Shown: positions 190-17,187 of the stretch, piece after piece
How positions within the stretch are numbered: position 1 is the first letter of the stretch
Layout: each line of letters opens with the position of its first letter
Origin: Nitrosopumilaceae archaeon
GTDB taxonomy: Archaea; Thermoproteota; Nitrososphaeria; Nitrososphaerales; Nitrosopumilaceae
DNA length: 35,114 nt
Reading direction: 5' to 3'
Assembly (NCBI GenBank): GCA_035288445.1
Contig: DATEAJ010000065.1
Span: 1 to 35,114 of the forward strand
Made by a program: the position numbers and the translations under genes
Notes under the pieces: generated by a model
The model's input: the letters and a program-made list of their open reading frames with translations, nothing else
What the model was told of the DNA's origin: nothing
Database searches by the model: none

Positions 190-1272
190 ATGGGTTTTGG
201 TTATTCAACTACTGTCTTTGGTGAAGCTGTATTCAATACTGGAATGGTAGGCTATACAGAAGCTTTGACAGATCCTTCTTACAGCGGACAAATTCTGACA
301 CTTACGTATCCTCTTATAGGAAATTACGGTGTGCCTGATCCATCAAAAAAGGACAAGGATGGAATTTCTGAATACTTTGAATCTGATAGAATTCAGGCAC
401 GTGGTCTTGTTGTACATAATCTTTCAATTACTGCAAATCACTGGAATCTTTCTCTTACACTTGACGAATGGCTGTACAATGAAAAAATTCCTGGAATATC
501 AGGAATAGATACAAGGGAACTAACTAAAAAACTCAGAATAAATGGCGTAATGATGGCAGCACTTGCAGTTTCTGAAAAAGAAATTGATGAAAATGATTTG
601 AAAAAGAAACTCGCTTCTGCACAAAAATACGTAAACGAAGAATTTATGAATGTTGTATCAACCAAAGAGCCGAGAGTTTACGGGACAGAATCCGAAGTAG
701 TCGTAGTTATTGATACTGGAGTAAAAAATGCAATTTTACGAAACATACGAAAAATTGGATACAAAGTAATTCAACTTCCTTGGAATGCTTCAATTGATAA
801 AATACTTTCATACAAACCAAAAGGTGTTGTATTAAGCAATGGACCTGGTGATCCTCAAAAATGTGCTGATACCATGAAGACGGCAAAAGAACTTTTAAAC
901 AAAAACATACCAACGCTTGGAATCTGTCTTGGGGCACAAATAATGGGGCTTGCATGTGGAGCAGATACATTTAAACTAAAATACGGACATCGAGGACAAA
1001 ATAAATCATGTATCAATTTAGATAACAATCAAGTTTATGTGACAAGTCAGAACCACGGATATGGAATAGATCCTGATTCATTGAAAAAATCAGACCTTAA
1101 ATTATGGTTTACTAATGTTGACGATCAAACTGTAGAAGGAATAAAACACAAAGAAAAAAAATTTATCGCGGTTCAATTTCATCCTGAAGCAACGCCTGGA
1201 CCTTTTGATTGCAAGTTTGTTTTTGAAGAGCTAAAGCGCCTTATGGAGGAGGAAAAAACTGCCAAAAGATGA
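190..1272 (+). CDS. carA: carbamoyl-phosphate synthase small (glutamine amidotransferase) subunit
   Basis: The 360-aa ORF has the CPSase small-chain N-domain (YTEALTDPSYSGQILTLTYPLIGNYGVP) and class-I GATase motifs (GICLGAQIMGL, NHGYG, QFHPEA). CarA-like sequence (KLILEDGTVFDG) continues upstream of the first ATG to at least nt 154. There is no in-frame ATG/GTG/TTG back to the TGA at 103-105, so the 5' end is uncertain. Confidence 0.93.
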   Translation: MGFGYSTTVFGEAVFNTGMVGYTEALTDPSYSGQILTLTYPLIGNYGVPDPSKKDKDGISEYFESDRIQARGLVVHNLSITANHWNLSLTLDEWLYNEKIPGISGIDTRELTKKLRINGVMMAALAVSEKEIDENDLKKKLASAQKYVNEEFMNVVSTKEPRVYGTESEVVVVIDTGVKNAILRNIRKIGYKVIQLPWNASIDKILSYKPKGVVLSNGPGDPQKCADTMKTAKELLNKNIPTLGICLGAQIMGLACGADTFKLKYGHRGQNKSCINLDNNQVYVTSQNHGYGIDPDSLKKSDLKLWFTNVDDQTVEGIKHKEKKFIAVQFHPEATPGPFDCKFVFEELKRLMEEEKTAKR

Positions 1273-4200
1273 ATCGCTAAAAAAGATTCTTGTTCTTGGA
1301 AGTGGGGCAATAAAAATCGGAGAAGCAGGCGAAAGTCGCTAAAACGACCGCAAATTCGACTACTCCGGTAGCCAATGCCTCAAAGCCATTCGAGAAGATG
1401 GGATCAAAAGTGTACTTATCAATCCGAATATCGCAACCATACAGACAGACACGAGGTTTGCAGATAAAGTATACTCTATCCCAGTGAATCCAGAATATGT
1501 TGAATCAATAATAGAATCAGAGCGTCCTGACGGTCTGATGCTTGGATTTGGTGGACAGACTGCACTTAACTGTGGAGTAAAACTCGAAGAATTTGGAATT
1601 CTAAAAAAATATGGTGTCAAAGTTCTTGGCACCCAAGTTGGAGGGATACACGCTGCAGAAGACAGACAACTTTTCAAGGATTCTATGATGGCATGTGGTG
1701 TTCCAGTACTGAAAAGTAAAACTGTTTACAACTTTGAAGAAGCAAAACAAATTGCAAAAGAACTTGGATATCCAGTAATTGTTCGAGTCGCATATACTTT
1801 AGGAGGAAAAGGAGGAGGTGTAGCACACAATGAAATCGAATTGTATGAAATAGTATCGCGTGGTCTAAATGCTAGTCTTGTTGGTCAAGTTTTAATTGAG
1901 GAATACATTGGTCACTGGAAACAAATAGAATATGAAGTGATGCGTGACTACCTTGGAAACAGTGTCATAGTATGCAACATGGAAAACGTACTTTCAATGA
2001 GGGTACATACAGGTGACAACATAGTTGTAGCTCCATCGCAAACACTTGATAATAACGAATATCATATGTTAAGATCAGCCGCGTTACGTGCAACACAACA
2101 TGTTGGAATTGTTGGAGAATGCAATATCCAGTTTGCACTTGATCCAGAATCTGAAAAATATGTAGCAATTGAGATGAATCCAAGGCTTTCACGTTCATCA
2201 GCGCTTGCAAGCAAAGCCACCGGATATCCAATTGCATACATGGCAGCAAAAATTGTAATGGGTCACTCTCTTCCAGAACTAGTTAATCGTATAACAAAGA
2301 CAACTACCGCATGCTTTGAACCTTCACTTGATTATATTGTATGCAAACATCCGCGATGGGATTTTACAAAGTTTGAACTTGCAAACCGCAGTCTTGGACC
2401 TACCATGAAATCTGTTGGAGAAGTGATGGCAGTAGGCAGATGCTTTGAGGAGTCTCTACAAAAATCAATTAGGATGTTAGAGATTGGAAACGATGGTCTT
2501 GTAGCAAACCGAGATAATGGCAAAGTCTATGATATTGAAGAAATTGAAAATAAACTTCAGAACACAGATGACCGAATTTTGTACTATGTTGCAGCTGCAT
2601 TGCGACAAGGCATGTCAGTTGAACAAATTTACAAACTTTCTGTAATAGATCCATGGTTTATTGAAAAAATCCGAAACATAGTAGAGATGGAAAAGAGTCT
2701 CAAAGACTCAAAGTTCACAACAAAATTGTTACGCGATTCAAAAAAGTTAGGATTTTCAGACAAGCAGATTGGAAGAATAATAAGTAAAGATGATCTTGAG
2801 ATAAGAAAAATTCGTAAAGATGCAGGGATCGTTCCAGCTGTAAAACAAATAGATACTCTTGCTGCCGAGTGGCCAGCAAAAACAAACTATCTGTATCTGA
2901 CATATGGCGGTGACACAAATGACTTTGAAGTACAATCAGATCAAGAAAAGATCATAGTTTTGGGTGCAGGTCCTTACAGGATAGGAAGTAGTGTAGAGTT
3001 TGATTGGGGAACTGTAAACATGGTTTGGGGGTTGCAAGAAAATGGTGTTAAAGAAGTTTCTGTAATTAACTGTAACCCAGAGACCGTATCAACTGATTAT
3101 GATATTTGTAACAGACTATACTTTGAAGAGCTAACACTTGAGAGAATACTTGACATTGCTGATTTTGAAAAACCAACTGGAATAGTTACTGCAGTAGGAG
3201 GACAAACAGCAAATAATCTCACCCCAAAACTTGCCAAAAATGGAGTCAAGATAATCGGTACATCGTTTGAAAACATCGACAGGGCAGAAAACCGTTCAAA
3301 ATTCAGTCAGGTTCTAGACGAGTTGCATATAATGCAGCCACTCTGGCAGGCATTCATAAAACTAGCTGATGCTAAAAAGTTTGCAAACAATGTAGGCTTT
3401 CCTGTATTGGTTAGGCCATCGTATGTACTAAGCGGCGCTGCAATGAAAGTTGTGTGGTCACAAACGCAACTAAAAAAATACTTGGAAGAAGCAACAAACG
3501 TATCACCAGATTATCCTGTTGTTATTACAAAATTCATGCTTAACTCACTTGAAGTTGAAGTAGATGGTGTCTGCGATGGAAAAAATGTAGTAATTGGAGC
3601 AGTAATTGAACACATAGAAAGTGCCGGAGTACACTCTGGTGACTCGATGATGTGCATTCCTCCATGGAGATTAAGCAACAAAGTAATTGAAACCATAACT
3701 GATTATACAACAAAAATTGCTACGGCATTTTCAATAAAAGGTCCATTTAATTTGCAATTCCTAATTAATTCTGATCAAGTCTATGTAATAGAATTAAACA
3801 TACGAGCATCTCGTTCCATGCCTTTCGTTTCAAAATTTGTAAAGCTGAATCTGATCGATTTAGCTGCACGCGCAGTTCTTGGAAAAACATTACCAAAGAT
3901 ACCAAAAGACAGATGGCGCAAAATTCATTCCTATGGAATTAAAGTGCCACAGTTCTCATTTATGCAACTAGAAGGCGCTGACATAATCTTAGGAGTTGAA
4001 ATGCAGTCTACAGGAGAGGCTGCATGTTTTGGTGACAGCTTCTATGATGCACTCTCAAAAGGTCTGATATCTGTAGGATATTCATTGCCAAAAGAAGGCA
4101 ATGCTCTCATAACTGCTGGGGGTGCAGAAAACAAGGAAAAACTACTTCAAACCGCAGTATTACTAAAAAATCTTGGATACAAGATACTTGCAACCGAACA

Positions 4201-4525
4201 CACTGCAGAGTTTTTGTCTGATAAAAGAATAGGAAATGTTGAAGTCGTCTACAAAATCAGCGAACCACAAAGAAAACCAAACATTGCCGATTTACTTTAC
4301 GAACACAAGATAAACTTCATTGTAAACGTTCCAAGTACTGCAACTTTAGAAAAGTACGTTGGAATGCTTTATGATGAATACCAAATACGAAGAAAGGCAG
4401 TGGAACTTGGTATCCCAGTGCTTACCACTACCGAATTGGCAGATTCATTTGCAAAAACACTTGAATGGTTGCTACACAATGAAACTACAAAAAAACCTCT
4501 TGAACCATACGAATCAATCAATTAG
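1259..4525 (+). CDS. carB: carbamoyl-phosphate synthase large subunit, interrupted near the N-terminus (the uninterrupted ORF is 1484..4525)
   Basis: The 1013-aa ORF has two ATP-grasp halves and an MGS-like C-terminal domain typical of CarB. The same frame read upstream gives (L)PKDESLKKILVLGSGAIKIGEAGE then SR*NDRK then FDYSGSQCLKAIREDGIKSVLINPNIATIQTD, which is the canonical CarB N-terminus with a 7-codon insert containing TAA (1340-1342). CTG at 1259 sits where homologues have the Met of MPK. Confidence 0.9.
1334..1354 (+). other. 21-nt in-frame intervening sequence inside carB (agtcgctaaaacgaccgcaaa), candidate mini-intron or bypass element
   Basis: The insert lies between the E and F codons of the conserved EFDYSG motif. 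It contains TAA at 1340-1342. It forms a hairpin (1335-1338 pairs with 1345-1348) stacked on 1329-1331:1349-1351, with a 3-nt AAA bulge at 1332-1334. Because of the flanking A residues, the registers 1332-1352 and 1333-1353 are equivalent. Confidence 0.6.
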
Positions 4526-16191: not shown

Positions 16192-17187
16192 GTGATTTCT
16201 GATTTGACAACAAGTGTTAGGATGACAACTAGAGGAATTGTCGTAAAACAAAATGAAACGCAAGTTCATCTTGATCCAATGCGTGCCGTAAGTAAAGGCA
16301 TCTCATTTGTTTCTCATGCTCATATGGATCACTTGCATAACCAAAATGGAGGTCTTCTTTTGACTACCAAACTGACAAGTGAGATAGCTAAAATTCGTGG
16401 ATATTCTATAGATAATTTTGTCGAAGAATTTGAGAATTTTTCAATGATCGACGCAGGCCACATCTTAGGTGCACGCGGTCTATTGTTCGGTGATGATATA
16501 TTTTATACAGGAGACATTTGCACACGCGAAAGAGGGTTTCTAAAAGGAGCAAAAGTACCAAAATGCAAGACTCTCATCACAGAATGTACATTTGGCAGAC
16601 CAGAGTTCATTTTTCCAAGAATAGACGAGACTGTAAAAAAAGTAAATGGTATCATATCTGAGATGTACTCAAAGGGAATCCCAGTAATTTTGCACGGATA
16701 TGAACTTGGAAAGGCGCAAACACTTTCTTACCTGTTTGGTCAATGGGATCCGCTCTACTATCATGATTCTGTTAAAAAAATAAACGATTTACATAGAATT
16801 TTTGGCATTGATCTAAAAGACGTAATAGGGCACACAGAAGCAGAAAAAAATGGATTACTTGACAAAAAACCATGGGTGATGATTGCTCCAAGTATGGGTG
16901 GTAAAAGTCACTTTGTAAATTATATGAAATCAAAATATGGTGCAATAACAATAGGATTTAGTGGTTGGGCTCAATCTACTCGGTACTCATTTGCAAGACA
17001 ACATGATTATTCCATTGTTCTCAGTGATCATTGTGATTATAATGAACTTATTGATCTTGTGAAAAAAGCGAAACCAGAAAAAGTTTACACGGTGCATGGA
17101 TTTGTAGACGAGTTTGCAAACGATCTAGCTAAAATAGGATTTGATGCGCAGCCATTACGTGAAGCGTCACTTGACGATTATTTCTAA
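16192..17187 (+). CDS. MBL-fold beta-CASP-type nuclease (ligase-associated exonuclease-like)
   Basis: The 331-aa ORF has an HxHxDH motif (SHAHMDHL) and a C-terminal SDHCDYNELIDLV...VYTVHG block like beta-CASP motifs B/C. An alternative ATG start is at 16222. Confidence 0.7.
   Translation: MISDLTTSVRMTTRGIVVKQNETQVHLDPMRAVSKGISFVSHAHMDHLHNQNGGLLLTTKLTSEIAKIRGYSIDNFVEEFENFSMIDAGHILGARGLLFGDDIFYTGDICTRERGFLKGAKVPKCKTLITECTFGRPEFIFPRIDETVKKVNGIISEMYSKGIPVILHGYELGKAQTLSYLFGQWDPLYYHDSVKKINDLHRIFGIDLKDVIGHTEAEKNGLLDKKPWVMIAPSMGGKSHFVNYMKSKYGAITIGFSGWAQSTRYSFARQHDYSIVLSDHCDYNELIDLVKKAKPEKVYTVHGFVDEFANDLAKIGFDAQPLREASLDDYF

Follow-up and report, generated by a model that had tools for sequence, protein, structure and literature searches.

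A candidate tRNA-type intron interrupts the carB coding sequence of ammonia-oxidizing archaea

Ammonia-oxidizing archaea (AOA) are autotrophs and need carbamoyl-phosphate synthase (CPSase) for the synthesis of arginine and pyrimidines. How can a member of this group make the large subunit of the enzyme if its gene, carB, is interrupted by a stop codon within an invariant motif? This question is raised by the window analysed here, a stretch of 35,114 nucleotides from a Nitrosopumilaceae archaeon (contig DATEAJ010000065.1), in which all features with coordinates given below lie on the forward strand. The carA gene, taken from the list of open reading frames (190-1272; Pfam CPSase_sm_chain and GATase), encodes the small subunit of the synthase, and its TGA stop codon at 1270-1272 overlaps the start of carB. 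In correction of an earlier reading, alignment with relatives places the carB start at the CTG codon 1259-1261, and no ATG, GTG or TTG is present; it is preceded, with 6 nt in between, by the Shine-Dalgarno-like GGAGGAGG at 1245-1252, a putative ribosome signal. From this CTG, the 25 codons of exon 1 (1259-1333) lead to the Glu codon GAA at 1331-1333, and the Phe codon TTC at 1355-1357 opens exon 2 (1355-4525), which stays open for 1056 codons up to the stop at 4523-4525 and matches Pfam CPSase_L_D1/D2/D3, ATP-grasp and MGS. Between these two codons of the invariant CarB motif sits the candidate intron agtcgctaaaacgaccgcaaa (1334-1354; 21 nt) with an in-frame TAA at 1340-1342. An insert splitting the E and F codons in this way had been claimed in the preliminary description of the window, and reading the frame upstream of the ORF at 1484-4525 confirmed it. 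Both flanks of the insert match the same Pfam domain, CPSase_L_D1, and gene callers yield only CarB products of 1013 or 1041 amino acids, which are 40-68 residues short.

Aligning carB with its relatives, a check proposed together with that claim, showed that 23 species-level AOA genomes carry inserts precisely between the E and F codons, with compensatory changes in the stems. The insert-bearing taxa belong to both the Nitrosopumilales and the Nitrososphaerales, range from soil to sea and comprise Nitrosotenuis, Nitrosarchaeum, Nitrosotalea, Cenarchaeum, some Nitrosopumilus and Nitrososphaeraceae; none of the bacteria and non-AOA archaea retrieved has it. As for cultured strains, the genomes retrieved suggest that Nitrosopumilus salarius BD31 and members of Nitrososphaera, Nitrosarchaeum, Nitrosotenuis and Nitrosotalea bear the intron. 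The inserts are 20, 21, 22, 29, 38 or 52 nt long, their length is not a multiple of 3 in nine genomes, and those of 21 nt all have a stop in frame. Thus, none of the insert-bearing genomes can make CarB without removal of the insert. The exact E-F junction of the motif is uninterrupted in intronless lineages, and the intron appears, judging from this distribution, to be ancestral to AOA with several precise losses since.

Two rival readings call into question the insert or the gene itself. One of them holds that the insert arose by an error of sequencing or assembly, or that a single strain gained it very recently, for instance by templated duplication of the upstream TCGCTAAAA, a 9-mer that is indeed present twice in the window (1274-1282 and 1336-1344). 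This match is missing in most relatives, including the 98%-identical locus L005, which removes the ground for the local duplication considered in the preliminary description. In addition, six independent assemblies of the lineage carry the insert: the JGI metagenome contigs L001, L002 and L003, which come from different samples, the Logan assembly L094 and the metagenome-assembled genome L004 have the identical 21 nt, and the Logan assembly L093 differs by a single substitution in the loop. Since the contigs L093 and L094 continue into the adjacent gene, which lies on the other strand, they are genomic DNA, and we discarded the idea that they could be transcripts. With these assemblies and with homologous inserts in 23 species, the artefact and the recent inactivating insertion are refuted. 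According to the other reading, no full-length CarB is made, and the locus is a pseudogene, gives an N-truncated protein from an internal start (e.g. GTG 1484) or encodes a split protein. The short products of the gene callers and the non-canonical CTG start would fit this reading; however, the CTG is common to at least nine species where others have ATG or TTG. Across the intron-bearing genomes, exon 1 is under strong purifying selection, with pS of 0.53 and pN of 0.035 (pN/pS ~0.07), and with so little nonsynonymous and such plentiful synonymous change it is therefore translated in frame. Exon 2 is intact over ~1055 codons in nearly all of the 23 intron-bearing species, at identities of 62-98%. 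The short exon-2 ORFs of L004 and L024 turned out by tblastn to be plain single frameshifts, most likely sequencing errors, and not the sign of a second intron. A split protein is contradicted by the end of exon 1 in the middle of the motif, so that neither part would hold the whole universally conserved motif. Intron-bearing carB shows neither relaxed selection nor accumulating lesions nor a restricted lineage, as would be expected of a pseudogene: the interruption has been kept across the whole AOA radiation without further disabling mutations, in organisms whose autotrophy calls for a CPSase. We thus regard the lack of a full-length CarB as very improbable.

If the insert is removed from the RNA, the sequence around it may hold the signals for doing so. 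In the minimum free energy (MFE) fold of the window, the two exons pair with each other in an outer helix h, whose 5' strand (1316-1325) and 3' strand (1360-1369, within the codons GAC TAC TCC GGT) form the pairs 1316-1322:1363-1369 and 1324-1325:1360-1361. Inside this helix, the exon strand GGCG (1328-1331) of a central helix H pairs with the intron strand CGCA (1349-1352), the fourth pair being G.A in the window. The 5' bulge AAA (1332-1334) separates H from an intronic hairpin h' (1335-1348; stem 1335-1338:1345-1348, loop CUAAAA 1339-1344), and the 3' bulge AAU (1353-1355) follows H on the other strand. RNAfold thereby recovers what had been claimed for the window, namely the pairs 1335-1338:1345-1348 and 1329-1331:1349-1351 with the AAA bulge, and it extends the claimed 5-bp distal helix (1318-1322:1363-1367) to 1316-1322:1363-1369. 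By itself, this single fold is only slightly more stable than expected by chance (z = -2.1; 9 of 200 shuffled sequences fold as well). When a generic pattern of the bulge-helix-bulge (BHB) type was used to look for other introns that interrupt an ORF in the window, 268 loose chance matches came up. Of the proposed check by folding and BHB scanning, the folding recovered the helices, and the loose scan was uninformative. We found no Rfam match anywhere in the window and no obviously split gene in Pfam scans of the other ORFs of the window. ARAGORN detected no tRNA gene in the window or in 27 AOA loci, so that there was no native tRNA intron for comparison.

The comparison among species was more telling than the single fold. 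All structure counts refer to 22 distinct insert sequences. The hairpin h' is paired in 100% of the cells of this alignment, i.e. in 22/22 sequences, with compensatory changes on both sides at three of its four pairs, and its stem occurs as GUCG/CGAC, GUCA/UGAC, GUAG/CUAC, GCCG/CGGC, GCCAG/CUGGC and GUUAGAAU/AUUCUAAC. The central helix H is 94% paired, three of its pairs always form, and the fourth is G-C in 12 sequences, G-U in 5 and unpaired in 5. The G1328.A1352 mismatch that the preliminary description had flagged as a weakness is thus present in the window, while 17 of the 22 sequences pair G-C or G-U at this position. For the outer helix, 95% of the cells are paired, and all changes are compatible with G-U pairing. 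The covariation score was matched by 0 of 500 shuffles, and pairing reached only 23-50% in slid controls. RNAalifold independently finds the same overall architecture, favouring however a pair between G1328 and 1357 that leads to a 5-nt 3' bulge. In single-sequence MFE folds, h', at least three of the four H pairs and the outer helix come together in 18/22 sequences; for the four variants with CGUC, the MFE puts H in another register.

The bulges are equally regular. At the 5' side, a 3-nt A-R-A bulge lies between H and h' in 22/22 sequences, which is the arrangement of an HBh' unit. At the 3' side, the bulge reads A-(A/G/U)-U, and its distance from the start of the 3' strand of H is always 4 nt; the last six nucleotides of the intron are CGYN plus two further nucleotides in all 22. 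BHB cleavage falls between bulge residues 2 and 3 (PMC2738675). Applied to the window, this rule predicts cuts at 1333|1334 and 1354|1355, as had been proposed. In all 22 distinct sequences, cuts placed in this way restore GAR|TTY, the exact junction of the motif, at intron lengths of 20-52 nt. The pair A1327:U1356 beside the 3' bulge had rightly been called a weak flank; it forms in only 12/22 sequences, and the solid outer helix starts 3-7 nt further out. The 3' splice site, as modelled here, is a relaxed one and not a canonical BHB.

The exon strands of these helices are codons, and their third positions were compared between 16 intron-bearing AOA and 7 unbiased intronless AOA. At paired sites, the intron-bearing genes use GGA in 15/16, GGC in 16/16, TAC in 16/16 and TCY in 16/16 cases. 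The same Gly codon is GGC in only 2/7 of the unbiased intronless AOA, the TAC and TCY sites are variable in intronless AOA, and unpaired third positions vary in intron-bearing genes. To judge from these codon counts, pairing, including that of the outer exon-exon helix, freezes synonymous sites only in the genes that bear the intron.

The best explanation for these results, to which we assign a probability of roughly 85%, is that 1334-1354 is a BHB intron in the coding sequence of carB, spliced by the tRNA-intron endonuclease EndA and the ligase RtcB and inherited from the AOA ancestor with precise losses. A relaxed BHB intron had also been the lead reading of the preliminary description; conservation at one site, lengths that are not multiples of three, covariation and the agreement of cuts and junction support it, and from these we infer cleavage, ligation and the enzymes responsible. 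In this model, carA and carB would be co-transcribed, and the pre-mRNA would fold between about 1316 and 1369 such that the exons pair as the outer helix, the intron forms the 4-bp hairpin h' and the GGCG of exon 1 pairs with the CGCA at the 3' end of the intron as the central helix, leaving the two 3-nt bulges AAA (1332-1334) and AAU (1353-1355). A heterotetrameric (alpha-beta)2 EndA would then cleave both bulges behind their second nucleotide (1333|1334 and 1354|1355), and an RtcB-type ligase would join GAA to UUC, releasing the 21-nt intron agucgcuaaaacgaccgcaaa. Only the spliced mRNA would encode a CarB of 1081 amino acids with the motif intact. Thaumarchaeota are reported to have an (alpha-beta)2 EndA, a type tolerant of relaxed BHB motifs (PMC5829648, PMC4090602), and archaeal tRNA introns are 11-129 nt long (PMC4090602). 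In pre-tRNA, anticodon nucleotides 34-35 lie in the helix preceding the bulge (PMC4090602); likewise, in carB a 3-nt bulge comes after the exon strand of H. No member of the tRNA-intron endonuclease or RtcB families was among the Pfam matches of the window's main ORFs.

The same hairpin could be read in other ways, by the ribosome or by other enzymes. The preliminary description had considered, as a second reading, translational bypass as in phage T4 gene 60, with CGC at 1337-1339 as take-off codon and an identical CGC at 1349-1351, past the hairpin, as landing codon. The window does have the required series of take-off codon, stop, hairpin and landing codon, and an exact in-frame CGY/CGY match exists in 8 of 20 distinct intron-bearing sequences. 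Yet 9/20, including all Nitrososphaerales, lack a matching codon pair even if CGU is equated with CGC, the codons before the stop in unmatched sequences being CAC, AGC, CAA or AGT, and no stop is present within the inserts of L008 and L026. Where codons do match, the CG-rich helices account for it. Bypass would moreover leave three extra residues inside a universally invariant motif, of which intronless lineages keep the exact junction; with the codon match not conserved, we consider this mechanism most unlikely. Removal from the RNA by another nuclease and ligase, or by an unknown pathway that reads the hairpin and its flanks, is improbable, if less so than bypass. It could appeal to the 3' site, which is not a canonical closed 3-nt bulge, and to a conserved AG at the intron start and a CCG after the hairpin, which might be recognised as sequence and not only as structure. 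The conserved bases are accounted for by their pairing with the coding GGCG, however, and what is conserved corresponds exactly to a BHB: a helix of 4 bp, a bulge of 3 nt, a hairpin beside it, and cut sites that lie 2 nt beyond the helix on either strand. In the articles consulted (PMC7714728, PMC4090602), EndA with an RNA ligase is the sole protein-catalysed route described for archaeal intron excision. Self-splicing as a group I or II intron was rejected, as inserts of 20-52 nt stand against a ribozyme core of hundreds of nucleotides and no Rfam match was obtained.

We also looked for spliced products of the EndA/RtcB pathway. A scan of JGI metagenome contigs for the spliced junction gave eight matches, all from intronless or distant lineages, and thus no cDNA evidence: four of them (L084-L086 and L089) represent one intronless Nitrosopumilaceae-like lineage on genomic contigs, L087 is a Nitrososphaera-like contig with only 73% identity to any intron-bearing locus, and L088, L090 and L091, which diverge in their N-terminal sequence, are not closely related to AOA. 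Protein searches with the spliced N-termini returned nothing with at least 92% identity to any intron-bearing locus, a weak negative given that the matches listed favour short fragments, and the exact spliced 1081-aa CarB is absent from the protein collection in which it was looked up.

The searchable literature yielded no prior report of an intron in carB. In the articles searched, including EndA articles of 2020 and 2025, cbf5 is cited as the sole archaeal mRNA intron that interrupts an ORF, in line with the preliminary description, and the only other archaeal mRNA case is a 5'-UTR intron of Haloferax (PMC7714728). A second ORF case, if true, would make protein-dependent mRNA splicing in archaea more than a curiosity of one gene, and would extend it to a second phylum, to a gene of core metabolism and to archaea that are among the most abundant in soils and oceans. 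An ancestral intron with several precise losses would be a natural system for studying the persistence and loss of introns and, at the same time, an example of RNA structure fixing synonymous codons. On the practical side, the truncation of AOA CarB by gene callers may lead metabolic reconstructions to label carB as broken. Why the intron would have been kept since the AOA ancestor is a matter for more tentative suggestions. Splicing might act as a post-transcriptional gate on CarB: since the stop or frameshift lies 25 codons into carB and the carB start overlaps the end of carA, only transcripts processed before the first ribosome arrives would yield the synthetase. Alternatively, the excised RNA of ~21 nt, possibly circular, might itself be functional. 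We consider such a role doubtful; were the gate real, it would tie arginine and pyrimidine synthesis to the RNA-processing capacity provided by EndA and RtcB.

The closest known system is the intron in the cbf5 pre-mRNA of Crenarchaeota (Desulfurococcales and Sulfolobales; Watanabe 2002, Yoshinari 2006, Yokobori 2009 = PMC2738675). Both introns are short, lie within an ORF at a highly conserved motif and form a relaxed, unconventional BHB to which exon sequence contributes, the cuts being predicted between the second and third bulge residues. They occur in hosts with a hetero-oligomeric (alpha-beta)2 EndA (for the carB host, according to the literature on Thaumarchaeota), have been lost patchily among relatives and lead to annotation as frameshift or pseudogene. 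They differ in that cbf5 encodes an RNA pseudouridine synthase of Crenarchaeota, whereas carB encodes a metabolic enzyme of Nitrososphaerota/Thaumarchaeota, and in that the carB intron has phase 0, whereas in cbf5 the intron splits a codon after its first position. Another difference is the apparent presence of the carB intron in the ancestor of all AOA. Splicing of the cbf5 intron was proven by cDNA and in vitro cleavage, whereas that of the carB intron is predicted. Since the host gene is carB, and the cbf5 intron lies at the catalytic Asp codon of cbf5, the two are distinct introns of one kind; for C. symbiosum and N. maritimus, no cbf5 intron is recorded (PMC2738675).

With the BHB introns of archaeal pre-tRNA and pre-rRNA, including the relaxed hBH and HBh' forms (Marck & Grosjean 2003; PMC4090602), the carB intron shares the 4-bp helix, the 3-nt bulges, an exon strand of H located 5' of the first bulge, an intronic h' and a length (20-52 nt) within the range of 11-129 nt, and the enzymes are presumed to be the same. 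In contrast to those introns, the exon strands of carB are coding mRNA, so that structure and codon choice constrain each other, and the 3' site lacks a solid adjacent helix. The resemblance to T4 gene 60 consists in a stop that follows a candidate take-off codon in a hairpin and in a matching codon downstream; in carB, however, the codon match is not conserved, lengths and sequences of the insert vary, and the hairpin is explained by intron-like covariation. In Haloferax volcanii, the mRNA of HVO_1309 is processed by the tRNA splicing endonuclease (PMC7714728), as we propose for carB, but that intron lies in the 5' UTR and not in the ORF, is known from one euryarchaeon and was confirmed in vivo and in vitro, whereas we infer the splicing of carB. 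A parallel in eukaryotes is HAC1/XBP1, where a very short intron in the coding region is likewise removed without the spliceosome, with a change of coding and a tRNA-type ligase; its nuclease is IRE1 instead of EndA, and it serves as a regulated stress switch. IRE1 recognises paired stem-loops and not a BHB. A carB intron of the kind proposed here would also bear on eukaryotic splicing of the HAC1/XBP1 type.

The carB gene directly follows carA (190-1272, forward strand), and its reading frame is interrupted by the in-frame insert agtcgctaaaacgaccgcaaa (21 nt, 1334-1354), located between the GAA (1331-1333) and TTC (1355-1357) codons for Glu and Phe of the invariant CarB motif. The insert carries a TAA at 1340-1342 and is read as SR*NDRK between two coding stretches, exactly as stated in the preliminary description. 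Both flanks match the pre-ATP-grasp domain of the CPSase large chain in Pfam scans, and 1056 open codons with the full set of CarB domains follow downstream. The identical 21 nt were recovered from three JGI metagenome contigs of different samples, the Logan assembly L094 and the metagenome-assembled genome L004, and a second Logan assembly (L093) contains the same insert with one loop substitution. An assembly artefact or a very recent insertion, both considered earlier, are excluded by these independent assemblies and by homologous inserts in other species. The 9-mer TCGCTAAAA, present in exon 1 (1274-1282) and again in the insert (1336-1344), had been mentioned as a conceivable source of a templated duplication. 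Since only a few relatives share at least 7 nt between exon 1 and intron, and the 98%-identical locus L005 has no match, the repeat is coincidental.

carB lacks an ATG, GTG or TTG start. The start codons of its relatives align with a CTG (1259-1261), 6 nt past GGAGGAGG (1245-1252) and with an overlap with the carA stop codon (1270-1272). At this position, other ammonia-oxidizing archaea (AOA) have ATG, TTG, CTG (at least nine species) or ATT, and non-canonical initiation of carB thus looks conserved rather than defective. The called carB ORF spans 1484-4525, and all 17 members of its 90% public cluster lack N-terminal sequence, with lengths of 1013 aa, 1041 aa or less, the 1081-aa spliced CarB not being among them; exon 1 of AOA carB is systematically missed by automatic gene calling.

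When one genome per species was scanned with the spliced CarB N-terminus, the matches were often 20-21 nt longer than expected. The extracted junctions revealed an insert at the exact E|F position in 23 species-level AOA genomes. The carriers comprise Nitrosotenuis, Nitrosarchaeum, Nitrosotalea, Cenarchaeum, N. salarius BD31 and other Nitrosopumilus as well as several Nitrososphaeraceae, one of them a Nitrososphaera; in the same scan, no insert was found in seven marine Nitrosopumilus/Nitrosopelagicus-type genomes or in any of the retrieved non-AOA archaea or bacteria. Insert lengths are 20, 21, 22, 29, 38 and 52 nt. Because the length is not a multiple of three in nine genomes and every 21-nt insert holds at least one in-frame stop, production of CarB from the unprocessed sequence is possible in no intron-bearing genome. 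In some Nitrososphaeraceae (junctions of L034 and L036; L030), the longer introns of 29, 38 and 52 nt have an intronic hairpin (h') with a stem of up to 8 bp (GUUAGAAU/AUUCUAAC) and A/U-rich loops; the loop can expand with the core of the fold retained. The long-read-like JGI contig L092 (1524-1574) has a 22-nt variant, agtcacttcaagtggccgtcaa, whose h' (GUCAC/GUGGC) is consistent with a bulge-helix-bulge (BHB) model; carA and carB of this contig are fragmented into numerous small ORFs, for which indel errors are the probable cause.

In a neighbour-joining tree of CarB, the insert is found in both major AOA branches and was therefore presumably already present in their common ancestor. The tree would then imply at least three precise losses, one in a marine Nitrosopumilus/Nitrosopelagicus group, one in L013 and one in the metagenomic clade L084-86; a fourth would be that in the Nitrososphaera-like intronless contig L087, which the tree does not include. 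Five intronless AOA contigs, L084 (4936-4976, reverse strand), L085 (607-647), L086 (4770-4810, reverse strand), L089 (7-47) and L087 (3426-3466, reverse strand), still use the exon codons characteristic of intron-bearing genes (GGAGAAGCNGGCGAA|TTYGAYTACTCCGG) and look like recent, precise losses. In L087, the reading frame of exon 2 additionally shifts after about 230 codons.

Both carB exons are under purifying selection. Among intron-bearing genomes, pS = 0.53 and pN = 0.035 were obtained for the final 18 exon 1 codons, and nearly every one of these genomes has an undamaged exon 2 ORF of about 1055 codons, with 62-98% identity to the window. In the two exceptions that were checked, the cause is a single frameshift: L004 (Nitrosotenuis MAG nzgw11; around 1387, about codon 386 of exon 2) and L024 (N. 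salarius BD31; around 4407-4411, about codon 438), both low-quality assemblies. Since neither site shows inserted sequence, sequencing errors rather than second introns are the most likely cause.

The helices proposed in the preliminary description were recovered by RNAfold, but the fold of the window sequence is barely above chance (z = -2.1; 9 of 200 shuffles fold equally well) and a loose BHB pattern scan of the window gave 268 chance matches, so the single-sequence structure is suggestive and no more. An alignment of 22 distinct junction regions revealed a covarying BHB-like fold. All 22 introns start with AG and end in C-CGYN-NN, and the 5' bulge is always A-R-A. The hairpin h' (1335-1338:1345-1348) is paired in 100% of the sequences, and at three of its four pairs both partners have changed (GUCG/CGAC, GUCA/UGAC, GUAG/CUAC, GCCG/CGGC, GUCAC/GUGAC, GCCAG/CUGGC, GUUAGAG/CUUUAAC and GUUAGAAU/AUUCUAAC). 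Pairing amounts to 94% for the central helix H (1328-1331:1349-1352), whose fourth pair, flagged earlier as a mismatch, is indeed G.A in the window but G-C in 12 of the 22 sequences and G-U in another 5, and to 95% for the outer exon-exon helix (1316-1322:1363-1369, 1324-1325:1360-1361), where changes are G-U compatible only. None of 500 shuffles reached the observed covariation score, pairing fell to 23-50% with slid 3' partners as control, and RNAalifold arrived independently at the same architecture; h', at least three of the four H pairs and the outer helix were present in 18 of 22 single-sequence MFE folds. The exon codons follow suit: paired third positions are fixed in intron-bearing genes (ATC 15/16, GGA 15/16, GGC 16/16, TAC 16/16, TCY 16/16), unpaired ones (GCN, TTY, GGN) vary, and all of them vary in seven unbiased intronless AOA. 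This is the pattern that an RNA-structure constraint linked to the intron would predict.

The first two anticodon nucleotides of a pre-tRNA are part of the 4-bp helix, and the splice sites are in the adjacent bulges (PMC4090602); the exon strand of H therefore precedes the 5' bulge, as in carB. Cleavage separates the second bulge residue from the third (PMC2738675). For the window, this rule gives the cuts 1333|1334 and 1354|1355 that had been predicted and removes exactly 1334-1354; in 22 of 22 sequences it restores GAR|TTY, and with it the invariant motif, at every intron length. The 5' site (H-bulge-h') has canonical geometry. The 3' site is relaxed, as had been noted, with the pair 1327:1356 by the bulge formed in no more than 12 of the 22 sequences and the solid outer helix beginning some nucleotides away. 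Cleavage of relaxed motifs is restricted to (alpha-beta)2 and epsilon2 endonucleases, and an (alpha-beta)2 enzyme is reported for Thaumarchaeota (PMC5829648; PMC4090602). With 20-52 nt, the carB introns are inside the usual range of archaeal tRNA introns of 11-129 nt (PMC4090602).

We infer that the carB pre-mRNA contains a tRNA-type intron, which the tRNA splicing endonuclease (EndA) would excise before an RtcB-type ligase joins the exons to an mRNA for the 1081-aa CarB. We assign EndA-type splicing a probability of roughly 0.85, and removal of the insert at the RNA level by any means a slightly higher one. In a translational bypass, ribosomes would take off at a CGY codon and land at a matching CGY past the hairpin, and the window and seven other sequences do contain such an exact pair. 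However, 9 of 20 sequences, all Nitrososphaerales among them, lack it even if CGU is equated with CGC, two inserts are free of stop codons, the existing matches follow from the CG-rich helices, and bypass would leave extra residues inside the invariant motif. That carB is a pseudogene, or encodes a truncated or split protein, is contradicted by the selection on exon 1 and the persistence of the insert across the AOA radiation. A self-splicing intron is ruled out by the small size and the lack of Rfam matches.

For the splicing product itself, a spliced-junction scan of metagenomes returned matches from intronless lineages only and no spliced RNA, and protein searches gave no junction-spanning product from any intron-bearing lineage. 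The predicted junction GAA|TTC (1331-1333 plus 1355-1357) forms an EcoRI site (GAATTC) that unspliced DNA lacks at this place, so that spliced cDNA could be recognised cheaply by restriction digestion.

According to Pfam scans, the remaining window is an ordinary, densely coding AOA chromosome with purD, 5-formyl-THF cyclo-ligase, folD, purN, uvrC/uvrA/uvrB, citrate synthase and others, and no second obviously split gene was seen among its ORFs; the window has no tRNA genes (ARAGORN) and no Rfam matches. The ORF 16192-17187 (forward strand, 331 aa) matches Pfam at its C-terminus only, with RMMBL, the RNA-specificity domain of metallo-beta-lactamase nucleases, and its N-terminal 250 residues match no family; the protein may be a divergent beta-CASP/MBL RNase.

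Full-text searches of the openly accessible literature gave no earlier report of a carB intron. A 2009 survey of cbf5 reported no confirmed mRNA intron except that of cbf5, and no cbf5 intron in C. symbiosum and N. maritimus (PMC2738675); according to a 2020 paper, the cbf5 intron was the sole BHB intron known from archaeal mRNA apart from the 5'-UTR case described there (PMC7714728), and an EndA paper of 2025 refers to no such intron beyond the cbf5 trio (PMC12397907). The cbf5 pre-mRNA intron of Crenarchaeota is the closest known case. It is experimentally proven, whereas the carB intron is predicted from sequence comparison and resides in another gene and another phylum. Both are the same kind of element: short, with a relaxed BHB, within an ORF at a conserved motif, in hosts with a hetero-oligomeric EndA, and with patchy loss.
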